From: Bacillota bacterium
GTDB taxonomy: Bacteria > Bacillota > Dethiobacteria > Dethiobacterales > Dethiobacteraceae
NCBI GenBank assembly: GCA_012521405.1
Contig: JAAYMK010000067.1
Span: forward strand, 7,393-71,392
Length of the DNA: 64,000 nucleotides
Reading direction: 5' to 3'
The translations under genes and the position numbers were made by a program. Below are positions 38,750 through 54,500 of the stretch, one piece after another. The first letter of the stretch is position 1. Each line of letters begins with the position of its first letter. Under the pieces are notes generated by a model, which worked only from the letters and a program-made list of their open reading frames with translations, ran no database searches and was not told where the DNA came from.

Positions 38750-38804
38750 AAATATTGCACGAGTGTCCCTGATCTGATAAACTATGAAGCAAAACAGAAT
38801 ATTT

Positions 38805-38968
38805 CCGATATAGGTACTCGCAAGAGTTTAATAGGGAATCAGGTGCAAAGCCTGAGCGGTCCCGCCACTGTAACCGCGAGTTTCAAAGCAAGATGCCACT
38901 GGCCGTTACGGCGGGGAAGGCGCTTTGAAATTATGACCGGGAGCCAGGAGACCTGCCTGTATCATAAA
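38805..38968 (+). promoter_or_regulatory. Cobalamin (AdoCbl) riboswitch aptamer
   Basis: AAUAGGGAAUCAGGUGCAAAGCCUGAGCGGUCCCGCCACUGUAA core, GCCACUGG...GGGAAGGC, and B12 box AGCCAGGAGACCUGCC. Lies upstream of cbiB-cobD. Confidence 0.92.
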
Positions 38969-39016
38969 GATCGTGCCCTCGGGTTAAGGGAAACGTGTAT
39001 TTTTTTGCGCATTTCT

Positions 39017-41230: not shown

Positions 41231-41950
41231 GTGGGGGGTGCTTTTTTGCTTGGTATAGTTGCCGCCATCGCTACCGTTGTTCGTGGAATTACGCTCCTGG
41301 TTTCTTACCTGAACAATAATTCTTTTCCCCAACCGCTATCCCCTGAGGAAGAAAAAAAATACCTGGAAAGGCTGGCAGCAGGTGATCCGGAAGCCCGCAG
41401 TGTTTTAATTGAACGTAATTTGCGTCTGGTGGCCCATGTCATAAAAAAATTCGAAAACACCGGCGAGGATCAAGAAGACCTTATCTCCATCGGCACAGTC
41501 GGTCTCATTAAAGCCATTGATTCGTATAAAAGCAATAAAGGAACCAAGTTAGCCACTTATGCCGCTAAATGTATAGAAAATGAAATCCTTATGCACCTTC
41601 GCGTTGTCACAAAACGTAAAGCAGAAGTCTTACTTCAGGATCCTATCGGTACCGATAAAGAAGGTAATGAAATTACTCTTATGGATATTTTGGGTACAGA
41701 TGCGGAAGAAATTTTGGACGAAGTAGATAAAAAAATACTGGAAGCTAAACTGTATAAAATTATTCGCCGTCTGAAAAAAAGAGAGCGTACAGTACTTGCG
41801 CTGCGTTTTGGTCTACCCATGGGACGGCGGCAAACACAAAAAGAAATAGCCAAACGTTTGGGTATTTCACGTTCTTATGTCTCACGTATTGAGAAAAAGG
41901 TGATCGCCAAAATTGCAGAAGAATTCCGCCAAGAAGAGGCGACCTTGTAA
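41231..41950 (+). CDS. sigK: Sporulation sigma factor SigK (pro-sigma-K), uninterrupted
   Basis: Pro-sequence, then [58 protein letters not shown] and [19 protein letters not shown]. No skin-like insertion is present. Confidence 0.85.
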
Positions 41951-42081
41951 TTATTTGCTTTATATTTAACATAGCATACCACAAGCAAGCTGCAGCTCGG
42001 CTGTGATTTTAACACATGTTTAGGTTTTTATAGAAAGTAAACAACAGAAAAACTTGAGAAAAACAAGCTAATGTTTTGCAG

Positions 42082-42118
42082 AAAAAACTCCGGCAGTTCA
42101 ACTGCCGGAGTTTTTTTG
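42082..42118. terminator. Bidirectional terminator between sigK and the convergent ABC gene
   Basis: aaaaaactccggcag ttcaa ctgccggagttttttt. Confidence 0.8.
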
Positions 42119-42132
42119 GAATATAGTTTAAA

Positions 42133-43929
42133 TTATGCTTCCTGGGCTTGGACGGTATCACTTCCGCCGGGAGGTCTCCAGGTTTTAGTGACGTCAACAA
42201 ACTCAAAATTACCTTCGGGCCGCTCTTGTGCAACCACCAATCTCTTGTGGAATTTTTCCAGTGATGAGCGGTGGCCAATGGAGACAATGGTGGTATCTTT
42301 CATGCGCTCTAAAAGCATATTATATAGAACTTCCTCTGAATCTTCGTCCATGCTTGCCGTGGCTTCGTCAAAGAAGAGATAATCGGGTTTATAAAGCATT
42401 GCCCTGGCAATTCCGACCCTCTGCTGCTCACCGCCGGACAGAACACGGTACCAGTGAGCTTCCTCATCCAATCTATCAACAAACTGCTCAAGACCGACAT
42501 CACGTAGGACTTGCTCCATTTCTTCGCGGCTGTACTTATCAGGCGGCTCGGGATAACTGATAACTTCTGCCAAGGTTCCAATGGGGAGGTAAGGTTTTTG
42601 TGGTAAAACGATAACTTTTTTGTCTTTAGGGGTGAGAACTTTTCCGTTACCAAAGGGCCAAATACCTGTTAAGACCCTGAAGAGCGTTGTTTTCCCGGCG
42701 CCTGTCTTACCTTTAATGAGAATTTTTTCGCCCCGGTTAAACTGCAAATCTCTAACGATAGCTTGTAATTCGCCTGAGGGTAGGAAGATATCCATTGTGG
42801 GGATGGAAACATTATCTTCATCGTGCTCATTGATGACAATATTGGATGCTTTTGTGATTTTTTCTGCTTCTTCGTGACTGTCAAGGAAGCCGACAAGACG
42901 GTTGATAACGGCTTTCCACACGGCCAAGTCGGCGTAAATGGTTTGGAAGAATTTAAAGGTTATCAGCACTTGTTGGAAAGCGTTTGCAATCTGCATAATG
43001 GAACCGTAACCGCCAGGAATTGCTCCCATAAAATAGGCAGGTCCCAAGAGAATGGAAATGACGACGCCGTCAGCAAAAGAGAAACCTAAAGTAATAAATT
43101 GCAGTTTCATCCGCCGCATTGCCATTCTAAAAGTATTGGCAATGACGTTGTTGAAAATCTCCATAACACGGGTATGTTCTACTTCTTCGCCGCCAAGCAG
43201 GGAGATTTGCTCACTGTTCTCTCTAATTTGCACCAGGGAAAAACGGAAGTCGGCTTCGTATCTTGTTTGGTCATAAGTGATACCAATTAAAGATTTACCA
43301 ACAAAGTGTGCACCCCAGGTGCCGATGACTGCCCAAATAAAGGCAATGACAATGAAGTAACCGGGGAAGGACCAATCTCTGCCGAAAAGAATCATGGGAA
43401 TTGTGGCAGACAAATTCCATAAAATAACAATAAAGGATCCTAAAGTCAAGAGGTTTTGCAACAGCTGGAAGGTGTATCTCCAGGTGAACTCAAGGAAACG
43501 GTTAATATCTTCTGCAATCCGCTGGTCAGGGTTATCGATTTTGCTGCCTGTAAACTGCATGCGATAGTGGTTGAAATCGGTCATCCAGTTGTCGATAAAC
43601 CGGGAAGACATCCATCTCCGCCAGCGAATGGCGATCCATTGGTCAAGATACATTCTTAAGCCACCACTAACGGTGGCAACCGTGGCAAAGAGGGCGAACA
43701 CTACAAGTTGCTGATTCCATAACGGACGGTCAACATTAACATAAGCGTTTGTCCAGTCTGAATACCATGCGTTAATACGGATTAAAGCAATCACGGAAAC
43801 GACCATTAAGAGCACATCAGCAATTAAAAGTAACCAGCTACCCAGACGTTCCTCAGAATAGAGCCAATATGGAGCCGCCAATCTCCATAATTGTTTAAAG
43901 GAGCGAATAATTTTTCTCATTGTCGTCAT
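42133..43929 (-). CDS. Fused TMD-NBD ABC half-transporter of the SbmA/BacA-YddA-ABCD type, paralogue 1
   Basis: 598 aa. TMD carries IDNPDQRIAEDINRF. NBD has Walker A GKTGAGKTT, LSGGEQQR, Walker B YLFFDEATASMD and H-loop SIGHR. Confidence 0.8.
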   Translation of the reverse strand: MTTMRKIIRSFKQLWRLAAPYWLYSEERLGSWLLLIADVLLMVVSVIALIRINAWYSDWTNAYVNVDRPLWNQQLVVFALFATVATVSGGLRMYLDQWIAIRWRRWMSSRFIDNWMTDFNHYRMQFTGSKIDNPDQRIAEDINRFLEFTWRYTFQLLQNLLTLGSFIVILWNLSATIPMILFGRDWSFPGYFIVIAFIWAVIGTWGAHFVGKSLIGITYDQTRYEADFRFSLVQIRENSEQISLLGGEEVEHTRVMEIFNNVIANTFRMAMRRMKLQFITLGFSFADGVVISILLGPAYFMGAIPGGYGSIMQIANAFQQVLITFKFFQTIYADLAVWKAVINRLVGFLDSHEEAEKITKASNIVINEHDEDNVSIPTMDIFLPSGELQAIVRDLQFNRGEKILIKGKTGAGKTTLFRVLTGIWPFGNGKVLTPKDKKVIVLPQKPYLPIGTLAEVISYPEPPDKYSREEMEQVLRDVGLEQFVDRLDEEAHWYRVLSGGEQQRVGIARAMLYKPDYLFFDEATASMDEDSEEVLYNMLLERMKDTTIVSIGHRSSLEKFHKRLVVAQERPEGNFEFVDVTKTWRPPGGSDTVQAQEA

Positions 43930-43977
43930 AAACCTCCATAGATATAATTAAACTTTCGTAAACAACTTTCCCAAAAG

Positions 43978-44817
43978 CTAAATCTTTCTGCTCTTTTGCC
44001 AATGTATAGCTTCTTGTTTTTTACCGATGAAAACGATGGCAAAGATAATGGGGATAAAAACGGCAAGTCCGCCAAAAGTCATGATCTGTAAAAGGGTGTC
44101 TCCTTCAAAAATCGGTAAAGCTTCTTCTGGTTGTGCAACAGGTGCTGCTGCCGGATCTTCAGTACCGGAACCGGCGCTGCCGTCTACCGGAATGGCTGCA
44201 AGTCCTTCCACGGCCACGACACCGGTGGCAGGAACGGTAATATTGCCTTCTGCATCTGTTGTGCCTAAAACTTCACCTGTTTCCGGGTCAGTGACTTGGG
44301 CATTTGCCAGCGGGGTAGAACTATAGGTAAAGGTTGTGAAGTCTAAGATCCACTCAGTGGCGGTAACTGTGGCCGAATCGCCGGAAACAGAAACCTTTAA
44401 AGCTACTGCACGGGCCGGCACCATGGGGTCGCTGGAGAGGGACATGATGATGTTGTCACCGCCCTTGACTGCTGTGGTGTCGGCAGTCCCCGGGTTCTCG
44501 GGAGCGCCCAATGGTGCGCCGTTGAGAATGACAAATGGGGTTGTGTTGACGCCCCAAGCTTTGGAGATTAAAAACATATTCCACATGGGATCAATACCTG
44601 CTTCATAACCGCTTTCCCCGCCCGGGAAAAAAGCTGCGTGGGCTGCTTTCAACACGCCGTCTACTGTCATTTCCGTGGGGGAGACGGGCTGGGCAGCAAT
44701 GATTAATTCCCCGTCAACACTGACGGTAATAAAAACAGTATTATCTTCTGCCGAAGCAACTGTCGTCATTGCTATCAACATTATGACAGCAATGGAAAGT
44801 ATGAGTGCTTTTTTCAT
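43978..44817 (-). CDS. Secreted, C-terminally TM-anchored protein with a DUF4430-like domain (tentative), paralogue 1
   Basis: Signal peptide MKKALILSIAVIMLIAMTTVASA. Conserved core TVDGVLKAAHAAFFPGGESGYEAGIDPMWNMFLISKAWG...ILNGAPLG...GGDNIIMS, then a second beta-rich domain, a P/A/G linker, a C-terminal TM helix and a basic tail. RBS aggagg. Confidence 0.6.
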   Translation of the reverse strand: MKKALILSIAVIMLIAMTTVASAEDNTVFITVSVDGELIIAAQPVSPTEMTVDGVLKAAHAAFFPGGESGYEAGIDPMWNMFLISKAWGVNTTPFVILNGAPLGAPENPGTADTTAVKGGDNIIMSLSSDPMVPARAVALKVSVSGDSATVTATEWILDFTTFTYSSTPLANAQVTDPETGEVLGTTDAEGNITVPATGVVAVEGLAAIPVDGSAGSGTEDPAAAPVAQPEEALPIFEGDTLLQIMTFGGLAVFIPIIFAIVFIGKKQEAIHWQKSRKI

Positions 44818-45300
44818 GTGATATCCTCCTAAAAGTAGATTTTTTTACATGCTTTTTAGAGCGTCTTCAATTTTCAGCCCATGAAAAAATACCCCTATAC
44901 AAGCAAATAGCCTCACCTCACTGCAGACTTTGTTAAATTTAATTTAAGTTTTAAGTAATGCCCTTGCATTACCAAAAACTTTCGACAAGTCTGAAATTTG
45001 CGAAAACTAATGTCGCAGTGGTACTTTGACCAATATCATAATGTGGTCAAATGCGGTGAGTCTACCCTGCTAAAATAATTTGGGGTATTTTGCTGCATTC
45101 CCATTGCCAATATTGTAAAGCAAAATAAGTAAAAAGTGTGCCTAAATATGTCGATACAAATGTATTACTTGTGATATTTTTTTTCCTAGGAGTAATTTCC
45201 ACAAAAAAATTTTTTTTCCTCTAGGATATAAAAAATTTATATATCTTCCCTCTATTAAAAAAGTTATGTCTATATTTTTTAATGTATGTACATTGTGGGA

Positions 45301-45342
45301 AAAGAAAGAGGGTGCTGCAAAGGGAAAAAGTTTGCGGCACCC
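45301..45342 (-). terminator. Terminator of the paralogue-2 ABC gene
   Basis: gggtgctgc (45310-45318) / gcggcaccc (45334-45342) stem with one G-U pair. On the minus strand it is followed by ctctttcttt. Confidence 0.55.
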
Positions 45343-45351
45343 TAAATTTAA

Positions 45352-47145
45352 TTATGCTCCACTTTGGGAAACTGTTTCCTCACTGCCCGGCGGGGTCCAG
45401 TCTTTGCCCACATCCACAAACTTAAAGTTGCCGCTTGGTTGCGGTTCAGCCACCACTAATCTTTCGTGGAATTTCTCCAGTGATGAGCGGTGTCCGATAG
45501 AAATAATGGTTGTATCTTTCATCCGTTCTAACAGCATTTTATATAATACTTCTTCCGAAGGCTCGTCCATGGAAGCAGTAGCTTCGTCAAAGAAGAGATA
45601 GTCCGGTTTATAGAGCATGGCCCGGGCGATTCCTACCCTCTGTTGTTCACCACCGGACAGGACGCGGTACCAGTGGGCTTCTTCATCCAGCCTGTCCACA
45701 AATTGAGCTAGATCAACATCACGTAGTACTTGTTCCATTTCCTCCCGGCTGTATTTTTCAGGCGGTTCCGGATAACTGATAACTTCTGCCAGCGTGCCGA
45801 TGGGTATGTACGGTCTTTGTGGCAGAATAATAACTTTTTTGCCTTTGGGTACAACAACTTTACCTCTACCAAAGGGCCAGATACCGGAAATAACCCTAAA
45901 GAGTGTGGTTTTACCGGCGCCTGTTTTCCCTTTAATCAGTACTTTTTCGCCTTTCTTAAAGACCATATCCTTAGCTGTTACTTGCAATTGACCGGTGGGA
46001 AGGAAGATATCCATTTGCGGAACTTGAATTTCATCTATATCGCGCTCTTCAATCTCAATTTTGGATTGACGTGTAATTTCAGCAGCTTCTTCACGGCTGT
46101 CCAAGAAACCGCAGAGACGGTTAATGACAGCTTTCCACTGGGCCAGCTGTTCATAAATTTGCTTAAAGAACTTAAAGGTGGTTAAAACGGTGGCAAAAGC
46201 TTGTGATATCTGCATAATGGCACCGTATCCACCGGGAATGGCACCCATAAAATATGAGGGGCCTAAAAGGATGGAGATAACCACGCCGTCTGCCATATCG
46301 AAACCTACGGAAACGATGGTTAATTTCATTCTCCGTAACATAATTCTAAAGTTGTTGGCAATGACGTTGTTAAAGATGGACATCAGTTGTGAGTGCTCAA
46401 CTTGTTCGCCACCCAAAAGGGCAATCTGCTCACTGTTTTCACGCACGCGCACCAGGGAAAAACGGAAGTCAGCTTCAAATCTGGTCTGGTTGTAGTTTAA
46501 ACCGATTAAAGATTTTCCAAAAGTATGGGAGAGGAAAGTTCCCAAAATAGCCCACACTAAAGCAATGACAATGAAATACCCGGGGAAAGATAAGTCGCGA
46601 CCGAAAAGCATTAAAGGAATATCATTGGAAAGGTTCCACAAAATAACGAGGAAAGAACCTAGTGTCAATACCTGTTGCAACAAGTTGAAAGTAAACATCC
46701 AGGTGTAGTCAAGAAAAATTTTGACATCCTCGGAAATACGCTGGTCAGGGTTGTCAGTTGATTTGGTAAACTGCATTCTGTAGTAGTTAAAATCTGTCAT
46801 CCAGTTGTCAATAAATTCGGAAGTCATCCATCTTCTCCACCGGATGGCAATCCATTGGTCAATATAGTTTCTGAAACCGGTACCAAAGGTCATCACAATA
46901 CCGACAATGAAAAAGACCCAAAGCTGCTGGACCCATAAAGGATAGTTCATTTCCACGTATGCGTTGGTCCAGTCCAGGTACCATCTGTTCATGCGTACCG
47001 AGGCCGCCACGGTTAATATCATAATGGAGACACTGGCCAGCATGAGCAACCAACTGCCTACGCGTTCCTCAGACTTTAACCAGTAAGGAACTGCCAGTCT
47101 CCAGATCTGTTTGAACATATGAATAATTTTTCTCATTGTCTTCAA
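45352..47145 (-). CDS. Fused TMD-NBD ABC half-transporter of the SbmA/BacA-YddA-ABCD type, paralogue 2
   Basis: 597 aa, about 70-75% identical by eye to 42133-43929. TDNPDQRISEDVKIF and the same NBD motifs. Confidence 0.8.
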   Translation of the reverse strand: MKTMRKIIHMFKQIWRLAVPYWLKSEERVGSWLLMLASVSIMILTVAASVRMNRWYLDWTNAYVEMNYPLWVQQLWVFFIVGIVMTFGTGFRNYIDQWIAIRWRRWMTSEFIDNWMTDFNYYRMQFTKSTDNPDQRISEDVKIFLDYTWMFTFNLLQQVLTLGSFLVILWNLSNDIPLMLFGRDLSFPGYFIVIALVWAILGTFLSHTFGKSLIGLNYNQTRFEADFRFSLVRVRENSEQIALLGGEQVEHSQLMSIFNNVIANNFRIMLRRMKLTIVSVGFDMADGVVISILLGPSYFMGAIPGGYGAIMQISQAFATVLTTFKFFKQIYEQLAQWKAVINRLCGFLDSREEAAEITRQSKIEIEERDIDEIQVPQMDIFLPTGQLQVTAKDMVFKKGEKVLIKGKTGAGKTTLFRVISGIWPFGRGKVVVPKGKKVIILPQRPYIPIGTLAEVISYPEPPEKYSREEMEQVLRDVDLAQFVDRLDEEAHWYRVLSGGEQQRVGIARAMLYKPDYLFFDEATASMDEPSEEVLYKMLLERMKDTTIISIGHRSSLEKFHERLVVAEPQPSGNFKFVDVGKDWTPPGSEETVSQSGA

Positions 47146-47215
47146 CCATCCCCCAAAATAATTTTTACCACTAAAACAGCATTAGCTTACGACCAAACTG
47201 TTGTTTGAGTTGAGG

Positions 47216-48109
47216 TTAAGAAATTTTCTTGCTTCGTTGCTCGTAGATATGTTCCTGCTTCCTGCCGATGGTCATAATGATAAGAAAAATTGGCAACAGC
47301 AGAATGATTCCCCAGATGACGATTTGCATTAAAAGCTTGTCACTGGTCAGAGAATAATCCTCCTCCGGTGCGGTAGGTTGTGCCGGCGTTTGCGGAGCGG
47401 CAGGAGCTGCGGGCGCTGCCGGTGCGGCAGGAGCGCCAGTACTGCCAGGAACAGAAGCTGAAGATCCGTCTGCGGGGATAGCTGCCAGACCGTTGATGGC
47501 CACTACGCCGCTTTCCGGAATAGAAATGGTGAGGCTACCGTTGGCATCCGTAAAGCCTAGGGAAGTCCCAGTCTCAGGGTCAATAACTTCGGCATTGGCA
47601 AGGGGAGAGGAACTATAAGAAAAGGTGGTAAAATCAAGTACCCAGTCGGTGGCTGTAATGGTTACTTCAGCGCCCTCCACTAAAGCTGTGAGGGAAACAG
47701 CTTTTGCCGGTACCATCGGGTCACTGGACAGGGACATAATAATGTTATCCCCGTTTTTAACCGGGGTAACATCGGCTGTACCAGGATTTGCCGGAGCCCC
47801 CAGAGGCGCGTCGTTTAGGATGACAAAAGGAGTAGTGTTTATGCCCCATGCTTTGGAGATTAAAAACATGTTCCACATCGGATCAATGCCTGCTTCATAG
47901 CCGCTTTCTCCACCCGGGAAAAAAGCTGCGTGGGCTGCCCTCAAAACGCCGTCTACAGTCATTTCCGAGGGGGAGATAGGCTGAGCGGCAACTACGAGCT
48001 GTCCGTCAACACTTACAGTTACATAGACAGTTGCTTCTTCTGCCAATGCAACGGTAGTCAGCGCCAACGTCATAATCATGGCGATGACAAGTACGAATAC
48101 TTTTTTCAT
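47216..48109 (-). CDS. Secreted, C-terminally TM-anchored DUF4430-like protein, paralogue 2
   Basis: Same architecture as 43978-44817, with the core about 85% identical. ATG at 48109 lies 7 nt after aggagg. The linker contains (APA)n. Confidence 0.6.
   Translation of the reverse strand: MKKVFVLVIAMIMTLALTTVALAEEATVYVTVSVDGQLVVAAQPISPSEMTVDGVLRAAHAAFFPGGESGYEAGIDPMWNMFLISKAWGINTTPFVILNDAPLGAPANPGTADVTPVKNGDNIIMSLSSDPMVPAKAVSLTALVEGAEVTITATDWVLDFTTFSYSSSPLANAEVIDPETGTSLGFTDANGSLTISIPESGVVAINGLAAIPADGSSASVPGSTGAPAAPAAPAAPAAPQTPAQPTAPEEDYSLTSDKLLMQIVIWGIILLLPIFLIIMTIGRKQEHIYEQRSKKIS
47393..47434 (-). repeat. In-frame Ala-Pro-Ala tandem repeat in the linker of paralogue 2
   Basis: Encodes APAAPAAPAAPAAP (residues 232-245 of the track ORF). 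It is absent from paralogue 1, which has AGSGTEDPAAAPVAQPEE instead. Confidence 0.85.
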
Positions 48110-48572
48110 AGTGTTTCCTCCTGACAACGTTTTTGTTTGTTTAGTAGAGCTGCAAAAGTATGGGGCGGATAACGTGCGTTATATCCGCGTTTGCTGCAAA
48201 CAACCAATTTCTATCCGGTTTTTACATGACTACACGCAAAAACATCACCTCTCAGATTTTTTTAGCGGCTTGACCCCCGTTTTTCCATAACTATCGACAA
48301 AATAAGCTTGTACAACTTTGCACAAGTCCAGATGCTTTTGGGCATAAAAGAGAGAGCAGGGAGAGATGTTTAAGCACAATCATAGGGATTTTCGTAAGAT
48401 GATTATATTTTCTAATTTGCGTGAATCTTTGCTTGGGATTAATCCTCGCATCCATGGGACATTGTAAAGCAAAATGCGCGCAAAGTGTGTTATATTTTGT
48501 CGAATATTAAGAATTTCATAAGCCTTTAAAATAATTTAACAATTGGCAAAACTACAGTAATATAATAAATGC

Positions 48573-48596
48573 AAAAAAAAACCGGGGATGCCGGTA
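48573..48596 (-). terminator. Probable terminator after the mntR-like gene
   Basis: On the minus strand, a short accgg/ccggt stem is followed by T9. Confidence 0.45.
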
Positions 48597-48602
48597 TTAT
48601 TT

Positions 48603-49079
48603 TTAATCGGTTATACTGTGTTTAAATTCCCAAGCCCTCAGCAAATTTAAATTATCTTCCGGTTCGTGTTGATGTTCTGCTTGTAATTTGTGTAATGCTT
48701 GTAAAAGGTGAGGATTAGACTCAAAAAATGTAATTAAATTGTCAATAAGTTTCATGGTTTTGGGAGTGATATAATGCTCAATACCCTCAACTTGTTCATC
48801 AATTCCAGATTGGGCATTGAGCATGGTCAAAAATTTTTTTAAAGTGGCATCGCGCCAAACTAAAAATTTGCCATATTTATCTCCCAAGGGGGTAAGCGCA
48901 ATATTCCGGTATTTTTCATATTTAATAAAGCCGGCTTCGTCAAGCTTTTGTATCATTTTCGTTACGCTAGAAGCCTGAAATTGCAGTGCCTCTGAAATAT
49001 CAACGGCACGTACATACCCTTTTTCTTTAATCAAGCGATAAATCATTTCCAAATAATCTTCCATGCTTTCCGTAAGCAA
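48603..49079 (-). CDS. mntR: DtxR/MntR-family metal-dependent transcriptional regulator
   Basis: SMEDYLEMIYRLIKEKGYVRAVDISEAL...SSVTKMIQKLD...EKYR...VEGIEH aligns closely with B. subtilis MntR. The position of MntR His77 is Asp here. Confidence 0.85.
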   Translation of the reverse strand: MLTESMEDYLEMIYRLIKEKGYVRAVDISEALQFQASSVTKMIQKLDEAGFIKYEKYRNIALTPLGDKYGKFLVWRDATLKKFLTMLNAQSGIDEQVEGIEHYITPKTMKLIDNLITFFESNPHLLQALHKLQAEHQHEPEDNLNLLRAWEFKHSITD

Positions 49080-49116
49080 AATTTTTCCTCCATTCTTCGC
49101 TTAGTGGAACCTTACA

Positions 49117-49134
49117 ATTTTAGACTATGCTAAA
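49117..49134. promoter_or_regulatory. AT-rich palindrome in the mntR promoter region (candidate autoregulatory box)
   Basis: TTTTAG-N6-CTAAAA, overlapping a putative GTGACA-N16-TAAAAT promoter on the minus strand. Confidence 0.35.
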
Positions 49135-49170
49135 AAGTTGTCACTAATGACTTCTAATCTTCGAGATTTA

Positions 49171-49200
49171 TAAAAAACACTGCCGGTTACCGGCAGTGTT
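49171..49200 (-). terminator. Rho-independent terminator after feoB
   Basis: aacactgccgg tta ccggcagtgtt forms an 11-bp perfect stem. A T6 run follows on the minus strand. Confidence 0.8.
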
Positions 49201-49252
49201 GAAAAGACTGAAACAAATAGGCGTATCCAGTCTGTGTGCATTTGCAGCCATG

Positions 49253-51400
49253 TTATACCAGTCCTAGGATGCGGGCCCCTTGAGCCACAAGAAAACAAAT
49301 TATTATCCCGGTCACGGTAGGAATAATGAAGGAGAGTAGCGTCCATTTGAAGCTTTGCGTTTCCTTGCGTATGGTCCAAAGGGTCGTGCCGCAAGGCCAG
49401 TGGTTAAGTGTAAACAGCATCATACAAACTGCCGTTACCCACGTCCAACCGTGATCTAAAAATAATTGTTTTAATTCCAACAAACTATCCAACTCAAGCA
49501 TGGAGCTTTCCGCCATATATCCCATAATTAAAATGGGGATGACAATTTCGTTGGCCGGCAGGCCTAAAATAAAAGCCATTAAAATATAACCGTCTAAACC
49601 CATAAGTTGGGCAAAGGGGTGTAAAAATTGAGCGCAATGGGCAAGCAAGCTTTGCCCCTGCACGGAAAAGTTAGCCATGACCCAAATAATTAAACCTGCA
49701 GGAGCGGCAATGGCCACGGCACGGCCGAGGACAAAAAGCGTGCGGTCAAAGATGGAGCGGATAATAATTTTGCCGATCTGTGGTTTTCTATAAGGCGGCA
49801 GTTCCAAAGTGAAGGAGGAAGGCAGGCCTTTTAAAATAGTAGAGGACAAAAGCCTGGAAGTCAGAAAAGTGAGCAGGATGCCCAGAATGATGGTAGACAA
49901 AACGGCAATTGTTGCCGCCAAAGAGCTAAAAATACCGGCGCTTCCCACCAGGAAAATGCCGGCCAGGGCTATTAAAGTAGGGAAACGTCCGTTGCAGGGA
50001 ACAAAATTGTTGGTAAGAATGGCAAGCAAACGCTCCCGGGGAGAATCAATAATCCTGCAGGCAATTACACCGGCAGCATTGCACCCAAATCCCATGCACA
50101 TTGTCAGAGCTTGCTTGCCGTGTGCACAGGCTTTTTTAAAATAGTGATCTAAATTAAATGCCACCCGCGGCAAATACCCCAGATCTTCCAGGAGGGTAAA
50201 GAGGGGGAAAAAGATAGCCATCGGCGGCAACATGACGGAAACAACCCAAGCTAAAGTGCGATAAACACCATGAATGAGAATCTCGTGTACTAAAGCGGGT
50301 GCGCCCAGCCAATGTAAAAAAAAGGTTAAATATCTTTCCACGTGAAAGAAAATAGTGGCCAGGAGAGCAGAAGGGTAGTTTGCCCCTTTGATTGTTAGCC
50401 AAAAAACAACACCCAAAAGGGCAATCATAATGGGGATACCGAAAAAACGGGAAGTTAAAATTCCGTCTAGGGTACGGTCGAAGTAGTTATAATTTTTGTT
50501 TTCCACGATAACAACTTGCTTACTAATTTTTTCCGCTGTTTTAATGAGAGAAGCAACTATACGGTCGCGCAATTCATTAAGATCTATGTGGTTCTTTTTT
50601 AAAAACAGCTGTGCTTTCGCTAAATTTTCCGCCAAGGCTTCATCTGCGGATAAAACAAAATTGAAAAAATGATCCATTACTTCAAAGAGAGCTTGATCCG
50701 AGTCTAAAAGGCGTAATGCCACCCAACGGCTATTAATTTTATCTCCTAATAATGCATGCACACGGGGTTCAATTTGCTCAACTGCTTCTTGTAATAAGCG
50801 GTCGTATTCGATGTGCCTTGGTCTTGTCTGAATCTGCCCTTTGGCAACAGATTTTATTGTTTCCTTTAACTCCAATAAGCCTTCACCCGTTCTGGCGGCG
50901 GTGCCGACAACAGGAATTCCCAGCAAAGTAGACAGCTTATTTAAATTAACGTGAATACCTTTTTTTCTGGCTTCATCCATTAAATTTACACACAGGATTA
51001 CTTTATCGGTTATCTCCATAATCTGTAAAACCAAATTTAAATTTCTTTCCAAGCAGGTGGCATCCGCCACCACCACGGTAACATGGGGTTGCCCAAAGCA
51101 AATAAAATCCCTGGCAATCTGCTCTTCCACCGAATTTGCCAGTAAGGAATATGTCCCGGGCAAATCAATAAGGATATATTTATCTCCGTCATAAGTATAT
51201 TTGCCCTGGGCATTAGTGACAGTTTTGCCCGGCCAGTTTCCCGTATGCTGTTTAAGGCCGGTGAGGCTGTTAAAAACGGTGCTTTTGCCTGTATTGGGAT
51301 TACCCGCCAAGGCCACAATCAAATCGGCCTGTGAGTCTGTTTGCACAGCAAACATTTCTTTTAAGATGCTTGCGCCCGTAGATTGGAGTGTTAAGCCCAT
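49253..51400 (-). CDS. feoB: Ferrous iron transporter FeoB
   Basis: N-terminal G-domain GNPNTGKST...DLPG, followed by a large polytopic permease; 715 aa. Confidence 0.9.
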   Translation of the reverse strand: MGLTLQSTGASILKEMFAVQTDSQADLIVALAGNPNTGKSTVFNSLTGLKQHTGNWPGKTVTNAQGKYTYDGDKYILIDLPGTYSLLANSVEEQIARDFICFGQPHVTVVVADATCLERNLNLVLQIMEITDKVILCVNLMDEARKKGIHVNLNKLSTLLGIPVVGTAARTGEGLLELKETIKSVAKGQIQTRPRHIEYDRLLQEAVEQIEPRVHALLGDKINSRWVALRLLDSDQALFEVMDHFFNFVLSADEALAENLAKAQLFLKKNHIDLNELRDRIVASLIKTAEKISKQVVIVENKNYNYFDRTLDGILTSRFFGIPIMIALLGVVFWLTIKGANYPSALLATIFFHVERYLTFFLHWLGAPALVHEILIHGVYRTLAWVVSVMLPPMAIFFPLFTLLEDLGYLPRVAFNLDHYFKKACAHGKQALTMCMGFGCNAAGVIACRIIDSPRERLLAILTNNFVPCNGRFPTLIALAGIFLVGSAGIFSSLAATIAVLSTIILGILLTFLTSRLLSSTILKGLPSSFTLELPPYRKPQIGKIIIRSIFDRTLFVLGRAVAIAAPAGLIIWVMANFSVQGQSLLAHCAQFLHPFAQLMGLDGYILMAFILGLPANEIVIPILIMGYMAESSMLELDSLLELKQLFLDHGWTWVTAVCMMLFTLNHWPCGTTLWTIRKETQSFKWTLLSFIIPTVTGIIICFLVAQGARILGLV

Positions 51401-51439
51401 GGAGCGGAACTTTCCTTTCTTTATAAATTGTTTTTTATT

Positions 51440-51685
51440 TTAATCATGTATGATTTCCACAAAAAGTTTTGCTGCTTCTTCTGCCCGCAATGCTATGACG
51501 GCACCTCTAATTTGATATGCTGTGGGATCTCCTGCCGGACTTTTTCTTAAAACTTCGACCACAGTGTCGTTAATTAAGCCTAAATCAAGCAATCTGCGAC
51601 GTGCCTGACCTTCGGCAATTAGTTTTTTTACTTTACCGTAAAAGCCTGTCGGTACCTGATTTAGGGGAATTAATTTTCTGTTCAT
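51440..51685 (-). CDS. feoA: FeoA-family protein
   Basis: SH3-like FeoA pattern L..VP.G..G.V..L......RRRLLDLGL..DT.VEV. ATG at 51685 lies 6 nt after gggagg. Confidence 0.8.
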   Translation of the reverse strand: MNRKLIPLNQVPTGFYGKVKKLIAEGQARRRLLDLGLINDTVVEVLRKSPAGDPTAYQIRGAVIALRAEEAAKLFVEIIHD

Positions 51686-51904
51686 AAAAATCCTCCCGTC
51701 GGTCATAAATCTACTCTGAGGCAACATCTTTCGCCAAAGCTAATTCACAATATGCCATTAGGAAAATACATGTTACAGTTTTTGCATGACCGGCAGAAAT
51801 AAAATAAGTTTCTACCCCTTAACACTGGGGAAATTAGTAAGAGCATGAGGAGCAGATAAAATGACGCTAACATGAAAAAACTTCTTAATATGGTGTTAAA
51901 ACAG

Positions 51905-52081
51905 ATTGACACTATTGGTTGTTTATGGTATAAAAAAATTAAAGCAATAAATTATTTTTATACCACATCACAAGTGAAATTTTTAGCAATCCTGCGCCAA
52001 AATAGTTTACTCACCAAAAAAAGAAGTTGAAAACAAGCAGTGGACGCTTACCTTTTGCCTTTGTGCAGGGTAAGCGTTTTT
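51905..52081 (+). promoter_or_regulatory. Promoter-to-terminator unit without an ORF (candidate sRNA or hydE leader/attenuator)
   Basis: TTGACA-N17-TATAAA at 51905-51933. An 11-bp hairpin tggtataaaaa/tttttatacca lies at 51926-51965. Terminator acgcttacc/ggtaagcgt plus ttttgc lies at 52044-52081. Confidence 0.4.
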
Positions 52082-52176
52082 GCAAAAATTACCAAAAAAG
52101 CAGGCTAGTTTTTATACATCTTCTTGGATATACAAGTATAGTGAATTGATGCCCGATAAAGCAAAGGGTGATTTAT

Positions 52177-53238
52177 ATGAAACAAAATATACAGAAAGTT
52201 ATTGATAAAGCGGTAAGAAAACATGAATTAACGAGAGAAGAAATTATTGTTCTGCTTTCATGTGAATTTTTCCACAAAAACAGTCTCTTTGTAGCCGCAA
52301 ATCGTGTCCGTGAAAAGTATCTGGGGGATGCAGTTCACCTGCGGGGGCTGATTGAATTTTCCAATTACTGCCGGCGCAACTGCAGCTACTGCGGTTTGCA
52401 GTGTGCAAATAAAAAACTAAAACGTTATCGTATGTCAATGAAGGAAATTTATCAAGCTGCTTTAGGTGCCTATGCTTTAGGCTACCGCACAATAGTGTTG
52501 CAGTCAGGTGAAGATTTTTACTACGATGCAGATAAAATTGCCGATTTGGTGCGTCGCATAAAAAAACTTGGCCTTGCTGTGACATTAAGCTGCGGGGTAA
52601 GGAGCTTCGAAGAATACCGCCTCTGGCGTGAAGCCGGGGCAGATAGATATCTTCTCAAACATGAAACTGCCGATCCGGCTTTATATCAAACATTGCATCC
52701 TGATTCCAGCTTTTCTGAACGACTGGAGGCTCTCATACATTTGCGCAGGTTAGGGTATCAAGTAGGTTCCGGTTGTATTGTGGGACTACCGGGACAGACC
52801 CTGGAATCATTGGCAGATGATCTGCTTTTCTTAAAAGCATTGGATGTGGAAATGGCCGGAATCGGTCCCTTTATTCCCCATCCTGATACACCCCTGATGT
52901 CCTTTCCTCAAGGTTCGGCGGAAATGGTATTAAAAATGGTGGCTGTTTTGCGACTGCTTTTGCCCCTTGCTCATCTTCCCGCAACCACTGCTTTAGCCAC
53001 CGTGGGAAATGATTTTAGAGCGCAAGCGCTGCGCTGCGGTGCCAATGTGATAATGCCCAATGTAACGCCCCGTAAGTACAGGCAACTTTATGCCATTTAT
53101 CCCCATAAAGCCGGTGTTAAGGATACACCTGTAAAGAGCCGGCAGCAAATTGTGGAAATGATTACGGCTTTGGGCAGAAAAATTGCTACGGATCAGGGAC
53201 ATAGCCCCAAAGAAAAATTCTGCCAGGCTGTAAGTTAA
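52177..53238 (+). CDS. hydE: [FeFe]-hydrogenase maturase HydE (radical SAM)
   Basis: CRRNCSYCGL radical-SAM motif, BioB-like body, located next to hydF and hydG. Confidence 0.85.
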   Translation: MKQNIQKVIDKAVRKHELTREEIIVLLSCEFFHKNSLFVAANRVREKYLGDAVHLRGLIEFSNYCRRNCSYCGLQCANKKLKRYRMSMKEIYQAALGAYALGYRTIVLQSGEDFYYDADKIADLVRRIKKLGLAVTLSCGVRSFEEYRLWREAGADRYLLKHETADPALYQTLHPDSSFSERLEALIHLRRLGYQVGSGCIVGLPGQTLESLADDLLFLKALDVEMAGIGPFIPHPDTPLMSFPQGSAEMVLKMVAVLRLLLPLAHLPATTALATVGNDFRAQALRCGANVIMPNVTPRKYRQLYAIYPHKAGVKDTPVKSRQQIVEMITALGRKIATDQGHSPKEKFCQAVS

Positions 53239-53259
53239 GTGTAGGAAGGAGTGCCTTTT

Positions 53260-54492
53260 TTGCAGACAACACCCAGAGGAAACCGCCTGCACATTGCTTT
53301 GTTCGGTCGTCGCAATGTAGGTAAATCCAGTATAATTAATGCCATCACCAGCCAGGAAATCGCTTTAGTGTCACCTATCCCCGGTACAACTACTGATCCT
53401 GTTTTTAAAGCCATGGAAATTCCCCCCCTTGGACCTGTTGTCTTAATTGATACGGCAGGTTTAGATGATGAGGGCAGCTTGGGAGAATTGCGGGTTAAGC
53501 GTTCTCGCCAAATTTTACAACAGGCAGAGATGGTGCTTGTAGTGTTGGAAGCCGGCTGTCCGCTGACTGTCCAAGAGCGGGAATTTCTTTTGCTTTGTAA
53601 AGAAAAGAAACTGCCTGTAGTGGCTGCAGTGAATAAAATTGATCAACAAGAATTTGTTGCAGATTTAGCAAAGCAACTAAAAGAATTGGCAATACCCGCC
53701 GTTCCTGTCAGTGCTTTAACCGGAGAGGGCATTACCGCATTAAAAATTGCTTTAATCCAAGCGGCTCCTGCTGACTGGGATGAGCGGCCTTTGGTGGGAG
53801 ATTTACTGGAGCCCGGTGAGGTGGCTGTTTTGGTTGTGCCCATTGACAAGGCGGCACCAAAAGGAAGGCTGATTTTGCCGCAGGTGCAAACTTTGCGGGA
53901 TCTTTTAGACAATAATGCCCTTGCTGTTGTATGTAAAGAAGATAAATTACAAAGCGCCCTTCAGGGGAGGAAAGTGAGAATTGTCATTACCGATTCGCAA
54001 GTCTTTGCCAAGGTGGAAGCGCAAACACCGCCGGATGTGCTTTTAACTTCCTTTTCCATTCTTTTTGCGCGACAAAAGGGGGATTTATTAACTTTGGCCG
54101 CCGGTGCAAAGGCAATTGAGCAATTACGTCCGGGCGACAAAGTTTTAGTGTCGGAAGCTTGCACACACCACCGCATTGAAGATGATATTGGGCGGGTTAA
54201 ACTGCCACGTTTATTAGAGCGGAAGGTGGGTGGCAAGTTACAATTTGCTTTTTCTAGCGGGGGCTCTTTTCCCGAAGAGCTGCCTGCATATAAACTGATT
54301 TTGCACTGTGGCGGTTGTATGATTAACAGGCGGGCCATGCTATCTCGCATTGCCCAAGCAAGAGAAGCCGGTGTTCCCATCGTCAATTATGGAGTAGCCA
54401 TTGCCCATCTCTTGGGAATTCTGCCGCGTGCTCTGTCTCCTTTTCCCGAGATTGGCCGGCAGTTATTCCCGCAAATATATAAAGAAAGGTAG
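53260..54492 (+). CDS. hydF: [FeFe]-hydrogenase maturation GTPase HydF
   Basis: GRRNVGKSS P-loop, DTAG, NKID, and C-terminal CTHH...HCGGC cluster motif. A TTG start at 53260 is preferred on RBS spacing; the track start at 53251 abuts the RBS. Confidence 0.85.
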   Translation: MQTTPRGNRLHIALFGRRNVGKSSIINAITSQEIALVSPIPGTTTDPVFKAMEIPPLGPVVLIDTAGLDDEGSLGELRVKRSRQILQQAEMVLVVLEAGCPLTVQEREFLLLCKEKKLPVVAAVNKIDQQEFVADLAKQLKELAIPAVPVSALTGEGITALKIALIQAAPADWDERPLVGDLLEPGEVAVLVVPIDKAAPKGRLILPQVQTLRDLLDNNALAVVCKEDKLQSALQGRKVRIVITDSQVFAKVEAQTPPDVLLTSFSILFARQKGDLLTLAAGAKAIEQLRPGDKVLVSEACTHHRIEDDIGRVKLPRLLERKVGGKLQFAFSSGGSFPEELPAYKLILHCGGCMINRRAMLSRIAQAREAGVPIVNYGVAIAHLLGILPRALSPFPEIGRQLFPQIYKER

Positions 54493-54500
54493 ATGCAGAA

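Follow-up and report, generated by a model that had tools for sequence, protein, structure and literature searches.

The window, the whole 64,000-nt stretch of Bacillota DNA that we analyzed, carries two consecutive operons on its minus strand, each consisting of a gene for a small anchored protein followed by a gene for a TMD-NBD ABC half-transporter (597/598 aa). We lean, with modest confidence, toward reading each module as a two-component uptake system for corrinoids (cobamide/cobinamide-type cofactors), in which a tethered capture protein feeds an exporter-fold importer; both the ligand and the direction of transport are what we infer. A tethered protein paired with a BacA-type ABC transporter would most likely be an undescribed uptake route for B12-like cofactors. 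The features of the two modules are as follows.

42133 to 43929, minus strand: ABC1, a 598-aa TMD-NBD half-transporter of the BacA/Rv1819c-ABCD type, type IV fold
43978 to 44817, minus strand: small1, a 279-aa tethered surface protein, 48 nt upstream of ABC1
44413 to 44745, minus strand: small1 domain 1 (aa 25 to 135), a predicted ligand-binding β-grasp
44818 to 45297, minus strand: leader/promoter region of module 1, no Rfam match
45298 to 45342, minus strand: intrinsic-terminator-like hairpin, GGGTGCCGCAAA ... TTTGCAGCACCC plus a T-run, read from the sequence
45352 to 47145, minus strand: ABC2, 597 aa, paralogue of ABC1
47216 to 48109, minus strand: small2, 297 aa from the ATG, paralogue of small1, 70 nt upstream of ABC2
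48110 to 48580, minus strand: leader/promoter region of module 2, no Rfam match

All four open reading frames are as described in the original prediction of a tandem two-gene module, and each feature named there was confirmed: the quoted core, the DNPDQRI.ED motif, the signal peptides, the Pro/Ala linker, the C-terminal TM helix, and the basic tail. ABC1 and ABC2 are 73% identical, in agreement with the 70 to 75% estimated by eye. The small proteins are indeed duplicates, but their identity is slightly lower than the estimated 65 to 70%, at 61% over the full length (BLASTP) and 86% within domain 1. The Pro/Ala linker is longer in small2 than in small1. The open reading frame list has small2 at 47216 to 48127, starting from a TTG at 48127. 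However, translation almost certainly begins at the ATG at 48109, which GGAGG precedes; the TTG start takes in that Shine-Dalgarno sequence. The tandem duplication may have yielded two specificities or raised the dose.

The two modules are separate transcription units: a hairpin with a T-run (45342 to 45298) lies directly after the ABC2 stop codon. In the orthologous locus L003, substitutions preserve its base pairing. A further terminator (48595 to 48581), 3′ of the upstream DtxR-family gene, parts that gene from module 2. Neither leader matches any Rfam family. Leader 1 contains a 44-nt block (44928 to 44885) that is 100% conserved with L003 and includes GAGGTGA and a tiny open reading frame, TTG CTT GTA TAG (44906 to 44895). 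The z-score of its predicted RNA structure is −4.4; leader 2 is not unusually structured (z = −0.2) and has a tiny open reading frame at 48239 to 48222. Two blocks are common to both leaders, ACACACTTT..ATTTTGCTTTACAAT and GAGGTGA.G..TTTGC.TGTA.

Both ABC proteins match PF06472 (1e-44 to 1e-48) and PF05992 (about 1e-25), which places them in the SbmA/BacA-ABCD clade as proposed. For ABC1, the values are 4.7e-44 for PF06472, 1e-26 for PF05992, and 1.3e-20 for PF00005, and DNPDQRIAED occupies residues 132 to 141. The closest solved relative is PDB 6tqe (Rv1819c/BacA; E = 8.5e-76 over the 552 residues 12 to 563), followed by plant ABCD1 (9wfg, 5.2e-69) and then by ABCD4, named "lysosomal cobalamin transporter." Neither is a PF00664-type peptide/bacteriocin exporter. 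Read from the sequence, both paralogues have a full set of NBD motifs (Walker A G407-T415, Q444, signature L497-R504, Walker B with E522, and H553).

Small1 consists of a signal peptide (aa 1 to 23), domain 1 (aa ~25 to 135), domain 2 (aa ~136 to 212), a flexible linker, and a TM helix from about aa 240, followed by the basic tail KKQEAIHWQKSRKI. The signal peptide cleavage sites of the small proteins fall between ..ASA and ED and between ..ALA and EE. In the AF2 model of small1 (pLDDT 87.9, above 95 in the core and about 53 in the linker), domain 1 is a transcobalamin-β/SLBB-like β-grasp, and domain 2 is a β-sandwich that is CarboxypepD_reg-like in relatives. A model of small2 domain 1 alone reached a pLDDT of 95.0 and a pTM of 0.87. 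Foldseek searches with these two confident models matched domain 1 of both paralogues almost exclusively to transcobalamin β-domains. These were the top matches for small1, and for small2 domain 1 the top 15 were transcobalamin β-domains or 3u7z (prob 0.99 to 1.00), followed by a sharp drop. The E-values are modest (3e-3 to 1e-2), with a TM of about 0.5 to 0.6, and the search selected the transcobalamin clade, not Wza or ComEA. The models show that the anchored protein adopts the transcobalamin β-domain fold in domain 1. The original prediction had also likened the protein to DUF4430, and at the level of sequence this was not supported: neither small protein of the window matches PF14478 (DUF4430) at E ≤ 1, and small1 has no Pfam match of any kind. 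Only 3 of 48 family members match PF14478, all below threshold (best E = 0.025), and a profile search of the small proteins against PDB sequences returned nothing.

Small1 has 66 homologues. In the domain 1 alignment, G67, G70, W88, G89, P94, and D121 are invariant, and H60, Y71, D76, N99, and N122 are nearly so. Position 78, in a hairpin, is an aromatic residue (W/Y/F), within the peptide pattern GID[PSK][MTA][WYF]NM[FY].

The two gene families are conserved neighbors elsewhere, in two phyla: the two genes stand together at 29 of the 42 informative loci, which come from Bacillota and Dehalococcoidales. Carriers of the module include the cultured Sporobacter termitidis DSM 10068. The gaps between the small gene and the ABC gene are short, with one to three tandem small genes ahead of each ABC gene, and another lineage (L041) carries a tandem module duplication of its own. 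The pairing is strictly confined to a single ABC subclade. ABC relatives of at least 48% identity with readable flanks (L050 to L052) all adjoin a small gene, whereas none of the 76 relatives at 36 to 43% identity has one next to it. The two partners co-diverge (Mantel r = 0.77, a value reached in 0 of 2,000 permutations). Moreover, 15 of the 22 TMD residues whose conservation is specific to the subclade lie in or adjoin predicted extracellular loops, against 8 of the 53 shared with unpartnered relatives (Fisher P = 1.4e-5). A literature search found no paper describing the pairing, in line with the original prediction.

A larger sister family shares the layout of the window proteins, from signal peptide through domain 1, domain 2, and linker to TM helix and basic tail, and is clearly homologous to the window family (hhalign prob 99.9, E = 2.3e-32). 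Its genes lie beside those for PF14478 DUF4430 proteins, some of which bear a prenyltransferase-like domain; most of these operons encode CbiQ, a double ATPase, and an ECF S-component as well. In all four independent contexts, a cobalamin riboswitch is found immediately upstream, with scores of 89 to 94 bits in L132, L134/L135, and L136 and a weaker match of 40.1 bits in L130. The family matches the "second paralogous extracellular SLBB protein" that Burroughs et al. (2007, PMC1796856) noted in predicted B12-scavenging operons. Because a homologous family sits in such riboswitch-controlled operons with DUF4430 proteins and mostly ECF genes, the corrinoid idea gains support. It has two independent links to cobalamin, one through the nearest relatives of the ABC protein (Rv1819c and ABCD4) and one through the transcobalamin β-domain fold of the small protein.

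We propose that the small protein would be secreted via Sec, lose its signal peptide, and stay tethered by its C-terminal TM helix and positive-inside tail, a topology suggested by its sequence features. The flexible Pro/Ala linker, with its low pLDDT, would keep the ectodomain off the membrane. The modeled ectodomain, a transcobalamin-β-like (SLBB) β-grasp packed on a β-sandwich, may capture its ligand on the face made by the post-helix β-hairpin, and the sandwich may replace the transcobalamin α-domain. Because the subclade-specific residues cluster in extracellular loops, the loaded ectodomain probably docks on those loops of a homodimeric ABC of the BacA/Rv1819c type (type IV, exporter fold) and would release its ligand into the large ABC cavity. 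ATP binding and hydrolysis at the intact NBDs would then move the ligand into the cytoplasm, a direction suggested by homology to Rv1819c/BacA. The cassette probably derives from the additional SLBB protein found in transcobalamin-like/ECF operons for B12 uptake under riboswitch control. In this scenario, a BacA-type ABC replaced both the ECF transporter and the α/β transcobalamin-like protein, and riboswitch control was lost.

The clade, the fold, and the conserved pairing claimed in the original prediction stand, but the PF14478 test proposed there gave no match and the argument from genomic context is not supported. The cited cobalamin riboswitch is real (38795 to 38974, plus strand, 128.9 bits) and heads cbiB-cobD. 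However, its link to the modules is weak: it belongs to cbiB-cobD, a unit of the other strand that runs toward the modules with a sigma-factor gene in between. The same-strand neighbors are FeoA, FeoB, a DtxR-family regulator, and then HydE/F/G (hydrogenase maturases). No cobalamin riboswitch adjoins any member of the window family, module or orphan, in about 42 loci (about 550 kb). The search works in these loci, because T-box, lysine, and SAM riboswitches were detected there. No corrinoid gene recurs in the family neighborhoods, and the flanks differ everywhere. The absent riboswitches, the iron-related neighbors, the PF14478 failure, and the modest Foldseek E-values count against a corrinoid ligand, as does the lack of an α-toroid partner in the module. 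In transcobalamin, the α-toroid gives much of the B12 contact. BacA/SbmA-type transporters are also promiscuous (bleomycin, Bac7), which counts against corrinoid specificity.

It is possible, if doubtful, that the same machine of tethered capture protein and BacA-type importer handles another ligand, such as heme or another metallo-tetrapyrrole, a metal chelate, or some other large hydrophilic solute. A module lies directly downstream of FeoA-FeoB and the DtxR-family regulator and near HydEFG, with synteny kept in L003; however, this adjacency occurs only in the window and that close relative, the DtxR-family gene and module 2 have a terminator between them, and inspection of the leaders found no convincing DtxR/IdeR-type operator. 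A ligand change would explain why the whole family lacks the B12 riboswitches of its sister family, and the organism carries cbiB and cobD and so makes at least the late pathway steps itself. SLBB-carrying B12 producers may scavenge "a distinct metabolite" (PMC1796856), and the nearly invariant His60 and Tyr71 are as typical of heme as of corrinoid ligation. Heme uptake has been claimed for a transcobalamin-like ECF system of L. sakei (bioRxiv 10.1101/864751), but this claim rests largely on docking, and the nearest characterized relatives of both partners handle cobalamin.

We think it unlikely that the ABC protein is an exporter or flippase, with the tethered protein as extracytoplasmic acceptor or chaperone of the exported molecule, as in CcmAB-CcmE heme delivery or a Lol/Lpt-type hand-off; the cargo could then be a corrinoid for partner organisms. 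Membrane-tethered acceptors beside ABC exporters have precedents, type IV is predominantly an exporter fold, and missing riboswitch repression fits a nonscavenging function. With ATP, BacA reportedly moves cobalamin both ways across the membrane (PMC10960864). Nevertheless, Rv1819c/BacA, SbmA, and ABCD4 move substrate toward the cytosol, the sister family in B12-riboswitch-repressed ECF systems (importers only) follows uptake logic, and multiple tandem and orphan capture copies per transporter resemble scavenging receptor arrays. It is very improbable that the partners are neighbors that do not cooperate physically, the small protein being a generic wall or surface protein (an adhesin or glycan-binding SLBB protein like ComEA or Wza) and the ABC protein acting alone like Rv1819c, which works without a partner. 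The remaining 13 of the 42 informative loci are orphan small genes with no ABC gene nearby, modules characteristic of surface proteins (SLH, choline-binding, LysM, dockerin, and Big_2) occur in relatives of the small protein, and other SLBB clades bind polysaccharide (PMC1796856). However, orphans come from MAGs in which a paired copy is present as well, and the orphans examined lack the TM anchor that paired proteins keep. The subclade specificity and co-divergence of the pairing, the extracellular-loop residues, and the Foldseek preference for the transcobalamin clade also argue against this explanation.

Among known systems, SLBB surface proteins with ECF (CbiQ/CbiO) transporters (PMC1796856; L. 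sakei lsa1836-1840, bioRxiv 10.1101/864751) and the sister family (L130 to L136) resemble the window cassette in having a secreted or anchored transcobalamin-β-like β-grasp, often in paralogous copies. Both serve a transporter class that normally lacks a substrate-binding protein. The SLBB-ECF systems differ in having an ECF transporter, a full α-toroid plus DUF4430 protein, and a cobalamin riboswitch (4/4 contexts); the window cassette lacks all three and has a type IV ABC instead. The human transcobalamin/intrinsic factor β-domain (5no0, 2bb5, and 2bb6) matches in fold (TMq 0.51 to 0.56, prob 0.99 to 1.00), with 21 to 24% identity over about 110 columns for most matches. Its strand and helix order, including the post-helix hairpin, is shared by the modeled domain 1. 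In contrast to transcobalamin, the small protein has no α-domain and falls below Pfam thresholds, its domain 1 is followed by a β-sandwich and a membrane anchor, and its ligand contacts are predicted. ABCD4 is a member of this ABC clade, carries the name cobalamin transporter in its PDB entries, and matches the window ABC at the NBD level (E about 3e-40); however, it is eukaryotic, and only its NBD aligns significantly. ABCD4 works with a membrane partner, LMBD1, which is a polytopic membrane protein, not an SLBB ectodomain. The Bacteroides BtuG/BtuH B12-capture lipoproteins (PMC6143338 and PMC10404256) follow the same logic: a surface capture protein hands corrinoid to a transporter, BtuB, with multiple paralogous loci per genome. 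The folds there are unrelated, the transporter is a TonB-dependent outer-membrane protein, and the envelope is Gram negative. The closest parallel to the window ABC is M. tuberculosis Rv1819c/BacA (6tqe/6tqf; also M. marinum BacA), a TMD-NBD half-transporter with PF06472, PF05992, and the DNPDQRI motif that imports cobalamin and other hydrophilic solutes (PMC3603451 and PMC10960864). ABC1 lacks about 37 N-terminal residues of Rv1819c, and its subclade, unlike Rv1819c, has its own conserved extracellular-loop residues. Rv1819c works without a binding protein, whereas the window cassette co-encodes a dedicated tethered ectodomain protein.

The window carries two copies of a two-gene cassette, and the four minus-strand open reading frames lie where the original prediction had placed them. 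Each module pairs a gene for a tethered surface protein (small1, small2) with a gene for an ABC half-transporter (ABC1, ABC2):

42133-43929, minus strand: ABC1, half-transporter of module 1, 598 aa
43978-44817, minus strand: small1, tethered protein of module 1, 279 aa
45352-47145, minus strand: ABC2, half-transporter of module 2, 597 aa
47216-48127 as listed, minus strand: small2, tethered protein of module 2, 297 aa from its likely true start

Translation of small2 very probably begins at the ATG at 48109, given a GGAGG 7 nt upstream of it, within the TTG-initiated reading. ABC1 and ABC2 are 73% identical. For small1 and small2, identity is 61% across the full length and 86% within domain 1. 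Gaps of 48 and 70 nt separate the small genes from the ABC genes. A hairpin with a T-run (45342-45298) is located 3' of ABC2, and its pairing is preserved through substitutions in L003, the orthologous locus of the closest relative. A terminator (48595-48581) follows the DtxR-family gene that precedes module 2. Therefore, the modules are two separate operons of one design. A long palindromic hairpin (42017-42130) between the converging ends of a sigma-factor gene and ABC1 is probably a bidirectional terminator; it weakly matched several unrelated Rfam hairpin models on both strands. L003 has the same tandem pair, and its MAG, Bacillota bacterium AS23ysBPME_351, has a third, more divergent module (L004) on a separate contig. 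The window's genome may therefore also have a third copy outside the window.

The TMDs of the ABC paralogues are matched by PF06472 (4.7e-44 and 2.4e-48) and PF05992 (1e-26 and 4e-25), and PF00005 also matches. In both sequences we found DNPDQRI.ED, Walker A, the Q-loop, LSGGEQQR, Walker B with the catalytic Glu, and the H-loop. The TMD families, the DNPDQRI motif, and the complete NBD assign both proteins, by sequence, to the SbmA/BacA-Rv1819c-ABCD clade. Among solved structures, the nearest in sequence is 6tqe/6tqf (E = 8.5e-76, residues 12 to 563), which we take to be Mycobacterium tuberculosis Rv1819c (the PDB title reads only "ABC transporter ATP-binding protein/permease"). Plant ABCD1 comes next, and then ABCD4, the "lysosomal cobalamin transporter." PF00664, the classical exporter TMD family, reached only E = 0.008, below its threshold. 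With 6tqe as their best relative, the proteins did not cluster with peptide or bacteriocin exporters, a placement named beforehand as contrary to the uptake proposal. No binding protein is needed for Rv1819c/BacA to import cobalamin, bleomycin, and Bac7 (PMC3603451, PMC10960864, PMC8442886). By homology, the window ABC proteins may import cobalamin or other hydrophilic solutes. We considered and rejected a type I/II binding-protein-dependent importer, since the TMD is the PF06472/PF05992 exporter fold and not BPD_transp/FecCD. A cluster A-F SBP as the partner was also rejected, because the small protein is modeled as a beta-grasp plus a beta-sandwich, with no SBP fold.

Searches of small1 and small2 against Pfam and NCBIfam gave no significant family over the conserved core, and the family profile had no match among PDB sequences. 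Membership in DUF4430 had been proposed, but hmmscan with PF14478 found no match at E <= 1 for either protein. Across the family, PF14478 matched 3 of 48 members, all below threshold (best E, 0.025). A transitive sequence bridge to DUF4430 via remote relatives was also rejected, since the second-tier proteins of the profile search reached CarboxypepD_reg and DUF4198, by way of domain 2, rather than DUF4430. The domain 2 of relatives is recognized as CarboxypepD_reg-like.

We modeled small1 with AlphaFold2, using a 48-sequence alignment as input. The model has a pLDDT of 87.9 (core, >95) and is arranged as follows:

Residues 1-18: signal-peptide helix
Residues 28-127: domain 1, beta-beta-alpha, hairpin, then more strands
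Residues 137-210: domain 2, all-beta
After domain 2: linker, low confidence
Residues 239-278: C-terminal helix

A Foldseek search of the PDB with the full-length model placed transcobalamin beta-domains on top (5no0, prob 0.97), and there was no other specific match. As a replicate from the other paralogue, we modeled domain 1 of small2 by itself (pLDDT 95.0, pTM 0.87). Its top 15 hits (prob 0.99 to 1.00, TMq 0.48 to 0.59) comprised only transcobalamin beta-domains, from human, rat, or bovine proteins, and 3u7z. The latter is a Ruminococcus gnavus protein that stands alone, and it matched with a TMq of 0.59, a TMt of 0.67, and an rmsd of 3.0 A. Below these 15 hits there was a sharp drop to generic ubiquitin-like beta-grasps (prob <= 0.57). 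The DSSP order is the same in both models: beta-beta-alpha, hairpin, beta ... beta. The transcobalamin-like fold that had been anticipated for the anchored protein is thus recovered in two models. On this modeling, domain 1 is a member of the transcobalamin-like clade of the SLBB beta-grasp superfamily (PMC1796856). In that clade, the structure is closest to the C-terminal domain of transcobalamin, a beta-hairpin is inserted behind the helix, and conservation extends to two glycines and to a hydrophobic residue of the hairpin, which stacks on the lower base (PMC1796856). In the family alignment of domain 1, G67, G70, W88-G89, P94, and D121 are invariant; H60, Y71, D76, N99, and N122 are nearly so; and position 78, in the predicted hairpin, is an aromatic W, Y, or F. 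These residues are compatible with a predicted ligand-binding face. The signal peptide and anchor represent the secreted or surface trait of the clade. We found no ECF (CbiQ/CbiO) genes beside the window's family at any locus examined; a type IV ABC is the partner instead.

The small-protein family comprises 66 clusters at 90% identity, and a profile search of 1.84 billion representatives returned 54 proteins at E <= 1e-30. We scanned contigs for further loci with a profile from a 12-sequence alignment. As had been expected, the two families are neighbors elsewhere: an ABC orthologue (49 to 91% identity to ABC1) lies directly 3' of the small gene or genes in 29 of the 42 loci with enough downstream sequence. 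They belong to Bacillota (Sporobacter termitidis DSM 10068 and MAGs of Oscillospiraceae and Clostridiales) and to Dehalococcoidales/Chloroflexota MAGs. A single ABC gene can have one to three tandem small genes upstream, and at one locus, L041, the entire module is independently duplicated in tandem. The 13 orphan small genes form a distinct group, and those examined have no TM anchor and carry Big_2 or Cu_amine_oxidN1 modules. Over 26 pairs, small and ABC pairwise distances are correlated (Mantel r = 0.77; 0 of 2,000 permutations as high).

From the ABC side, a scan of metagenome contigs that used an alignment of the TMD only gave 80 loci. A small gene was adjacent in all three loci with an ABC identity of >=48% and readable flanks (L050 to L052), and in none of the 76 loci at 36 to 43%. 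One locus at 55% identity (L053) was left out, with only 8 bp upstream. Of the 22 TMD positions conserved only in the partnered subclade, 15 are in or beside the three predicted extracellular loops (59/71/73, 177-194, and 295-308), versus 8 of 53 positions shared with unpartnered relatives (Fisher P = 1.4e-5). Because these loops come from a hydropathy-predicted topology, this result is suggestive of, rather than proof for, docking of the small protein on the ABC.

The second-tier proteins of the profile search belong to a sister family. They are homologous to the small proteins over both ectodomain domains (hhalign prob 99.9, E = 2.3e-32), and many have the identical architecture of signal peptide, domain 1, domain 2, linker, TM helix, and basic tail. 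This family has >900 clusters at E <= 1e-10, and PF14478 matched 1 of 63 of its proteins and then 0 of 10 further ones. In four of four independent contexts inspected, the sister gene abuts or overlaps one for a genuine DUF4430 protein (PF14478), which sometimes has a prenyltransferase-like alpha-toroid. CbiQ, a double ATPase, and an ECF S-component are encoded in most of these operons, too. A cobalamin riboswitch is directly upstream in all four contexts (L132, 94.4 bits; L134/L135, 89.4 bits; L136, 92.9 bits; and a weaker match at L130, 40.1 bits). Neighbors at L134 include B12-binding, PocR, and URO-D genes. The sister proteins at these loci (P0174, P0244, P0266, P0311, and P0229) belong to an unannotated family. 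The sister family seems to represent a third extracellular component, so far undescribed, of ECF-type B12 uptake systems.

The modules in the window have these surroundings:

38795-38974, plus strand: the window's single RF00174 match, ahead of cbiB-cobD
41231-41950, plus strand: sigma-70 family gene with regions 2 and 4 and an N-terminal hydrophobic pro-sequence, between cobD and the converging ABC1; we take it to resemble pro-sigma-K
48603-55943 and 56901-58265: iron-centered block, with a DtxR-family repressor, FeoB, and FeoA on the minus strand and HydE, HydF, HydG, and an [FeFe]-hydrogenase-like protein on the plus strand

The original prediction drew a corrinoid link from the nearby riboswitch. 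That argument fails: the riboswitch heads cbiB-cobD and not the modules, and the sigma-factor gene lies between them. Permissive cmscan detected no RF00174 in 41900-49300, and the module leaders matched no Rfam family at E <= 10, only noise. No cobalamin riboswitch was found near the window's family in about 42 loci (about 550 kb), in which T-box, lysine, and SAM riboswitches were detected. Of the two leader RNAs, only that of leader 1 has unusual stability (z = -4.4; leader 2, z = -0.2), and we rejected an unknown riboswitch in these regions. A leader 2 hairpin with a T-run (48326-48307) was rejected as an attenuator because it is not conserved in L003. By inspection, the leaders contain no convincing DtxR/IdeR- or MntR-type palindrome.

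Two sequence blocks are common to both leaders. The block GAGGTGA.G..TTTGC.TGTA (minus strand, 44928-44885 in leader 1 and 48253-48222 in leader 2) reads as a strong Shine-Dalgarno sequence and a tiny ORF (MLV*, 44906-44895; MRVVM*, 48239-48222), and its leader 1 copy is 100% conserved with L003. It occurs in the window and L003 only, besides one probably chance match in L041, and is absent from 22 other module leaders. The promoter-proximal block ACACACTTT-N8-10-ATTTTGCTTTACAAT (within 48128-48602 and 44818-45351, minus strand) is about 250 to 330 nt 5' of the start codons and is also conserved in L003. It is not a clean match to a sigma-70 -35/-10 pair and may loosely resemble sporulation-sigma -10 elements.

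The flanking genes of the modules vary in every lineage. In L001, L002, and L043 and its duplicate L044, the four Dehalococcoidales/Chloroflexota loci with gene calls, a conserved protein of about 340 aa, which gives faint MarR/TrmB/PadR-type HTH matches, is encoded ahead of the module. This protein is a candidate regulator in place of a riboswitch. The module loci of this group are L001, L002, L010, L021, L035, and L043. After the module, L001 and L002 encode an SBP_bac_5 protein and an Opp/Nik-type ABC transporter. In L009, L010, L017, L021, and L035, there is a tRNA gene just 3' of the ABC gene.

We suggest that the window's small protein would derive from the accessory SLBB protein of riboswitch-controlled ECF B12 operons. 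A BacA/Rv1819c-type ABC would replace the ECF transporter and the alpha/beta transcobalamin-like protein, and riboswitch control would be lost. The small protein would capture corrinoid at the cell surface and then pass it to the exporter-fold importer. Corrinoid capture is the likeliest function, because the nearest characterized relatives of both partners handle cobalamin. We lean, if only slightly, toward this scheme of surface capture and hand-off, for which we infer the ligand, the docking, and the direction of transport.

The identical machine could serve another ligand, such as heme, another tetrapyrrole, or a chelate. The loss of riboswitches in the window's family, the late cobamide-synthesis genes in this organism, and the iron context of the modules would agree with such a ligand. 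That context includes same-strand FeoA, FeoB, and a DtxR-family repressor (158 aa, without an SH3-like domain). The Feo-DtxR-module synteny is common only to the window and L003, and among the loci compared, Feo, DtxR, CbiB, or CobD recurred near no other module. We regard a different ligand as rather unlikely. The exporter fold, together with reports that BacA transport is bidirectional, would also accommodate an ABC exporter that loads a tethered acceptor; beside the import known for Rv1819c/BacA, this seems improbable. That the two genes are mere neighbors, with no physical coupling, we consider highly improbable. Orphan small copies do exist, and they stem from MAGs that also carry a paired copy; the correlated distances and the loop positions are consistent with coupling. 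Returning to corrinoid capture and hand-off, we propose tentatively that the cassette could be the first type IV ABC importer dependent on its own membrane-tethered binding protein, a transcobalamin-beta-like SLBB receptor recruited from ECF-type B12 systems. In this wider proposal, it would also be a third, riboswitch-independent corrinoid route in anaerobic Bacillota and Dehalococcoidales.

The BacA/Rv1819c type is the textbook exporter-fold ABC that imports bulky hydrophilic molecules, with a large unspecific cavity and no binding protein. The field question touched here is where selectivity and directionality come from in such machines. A subclade in which a dedicated tethered receptor co-evolves with the transporter would offer a natural experiment in adding specificity to the BacA scaffold, and the small/ABC pair would be tractable for structural work. 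The carriers are Clostridia of anaerobic digesters and sediments and Dehalococcoidales MAGs. Corrinoid cross-feeding is considered important in such communities, and the Dehalococcoidales include corrinoid-dependent organohalide respirers. Because it has no riboswitch, the cassette route escapes regulon predictions that start from riboswitches. The analysis also links the much larger, unannotated sister family to riboswitch-controlled B12 uptake operons.

The sister operons correspond to the B12-scavenging system predicted by Burroughs et al. 2007 (PMC1796856), including its "second paralogous extracellular SLBB protein." They share their layout with the L. sakei lsa1836-1840 operon, for which heme was proposed. 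Co-encoding with CbiQ/CbiO (ECF), a clade trait in Burroughs et al., is seen in the sister family, whereas it is not in the window's family. BacA/Rv1819c-type importers without partners were already known, as were transcobalamin-like SLBB surface proteins co-encoded with ECF transporters and B12 surface capture proteins in Bacteroides. In the open-access literature and bioRxiv, we found no published description of an SLBB receptor paired with a type IV ABC. The new element is this combination, which spans two phyla, belongs to a single ABC subclade, and is riboswitch independent.
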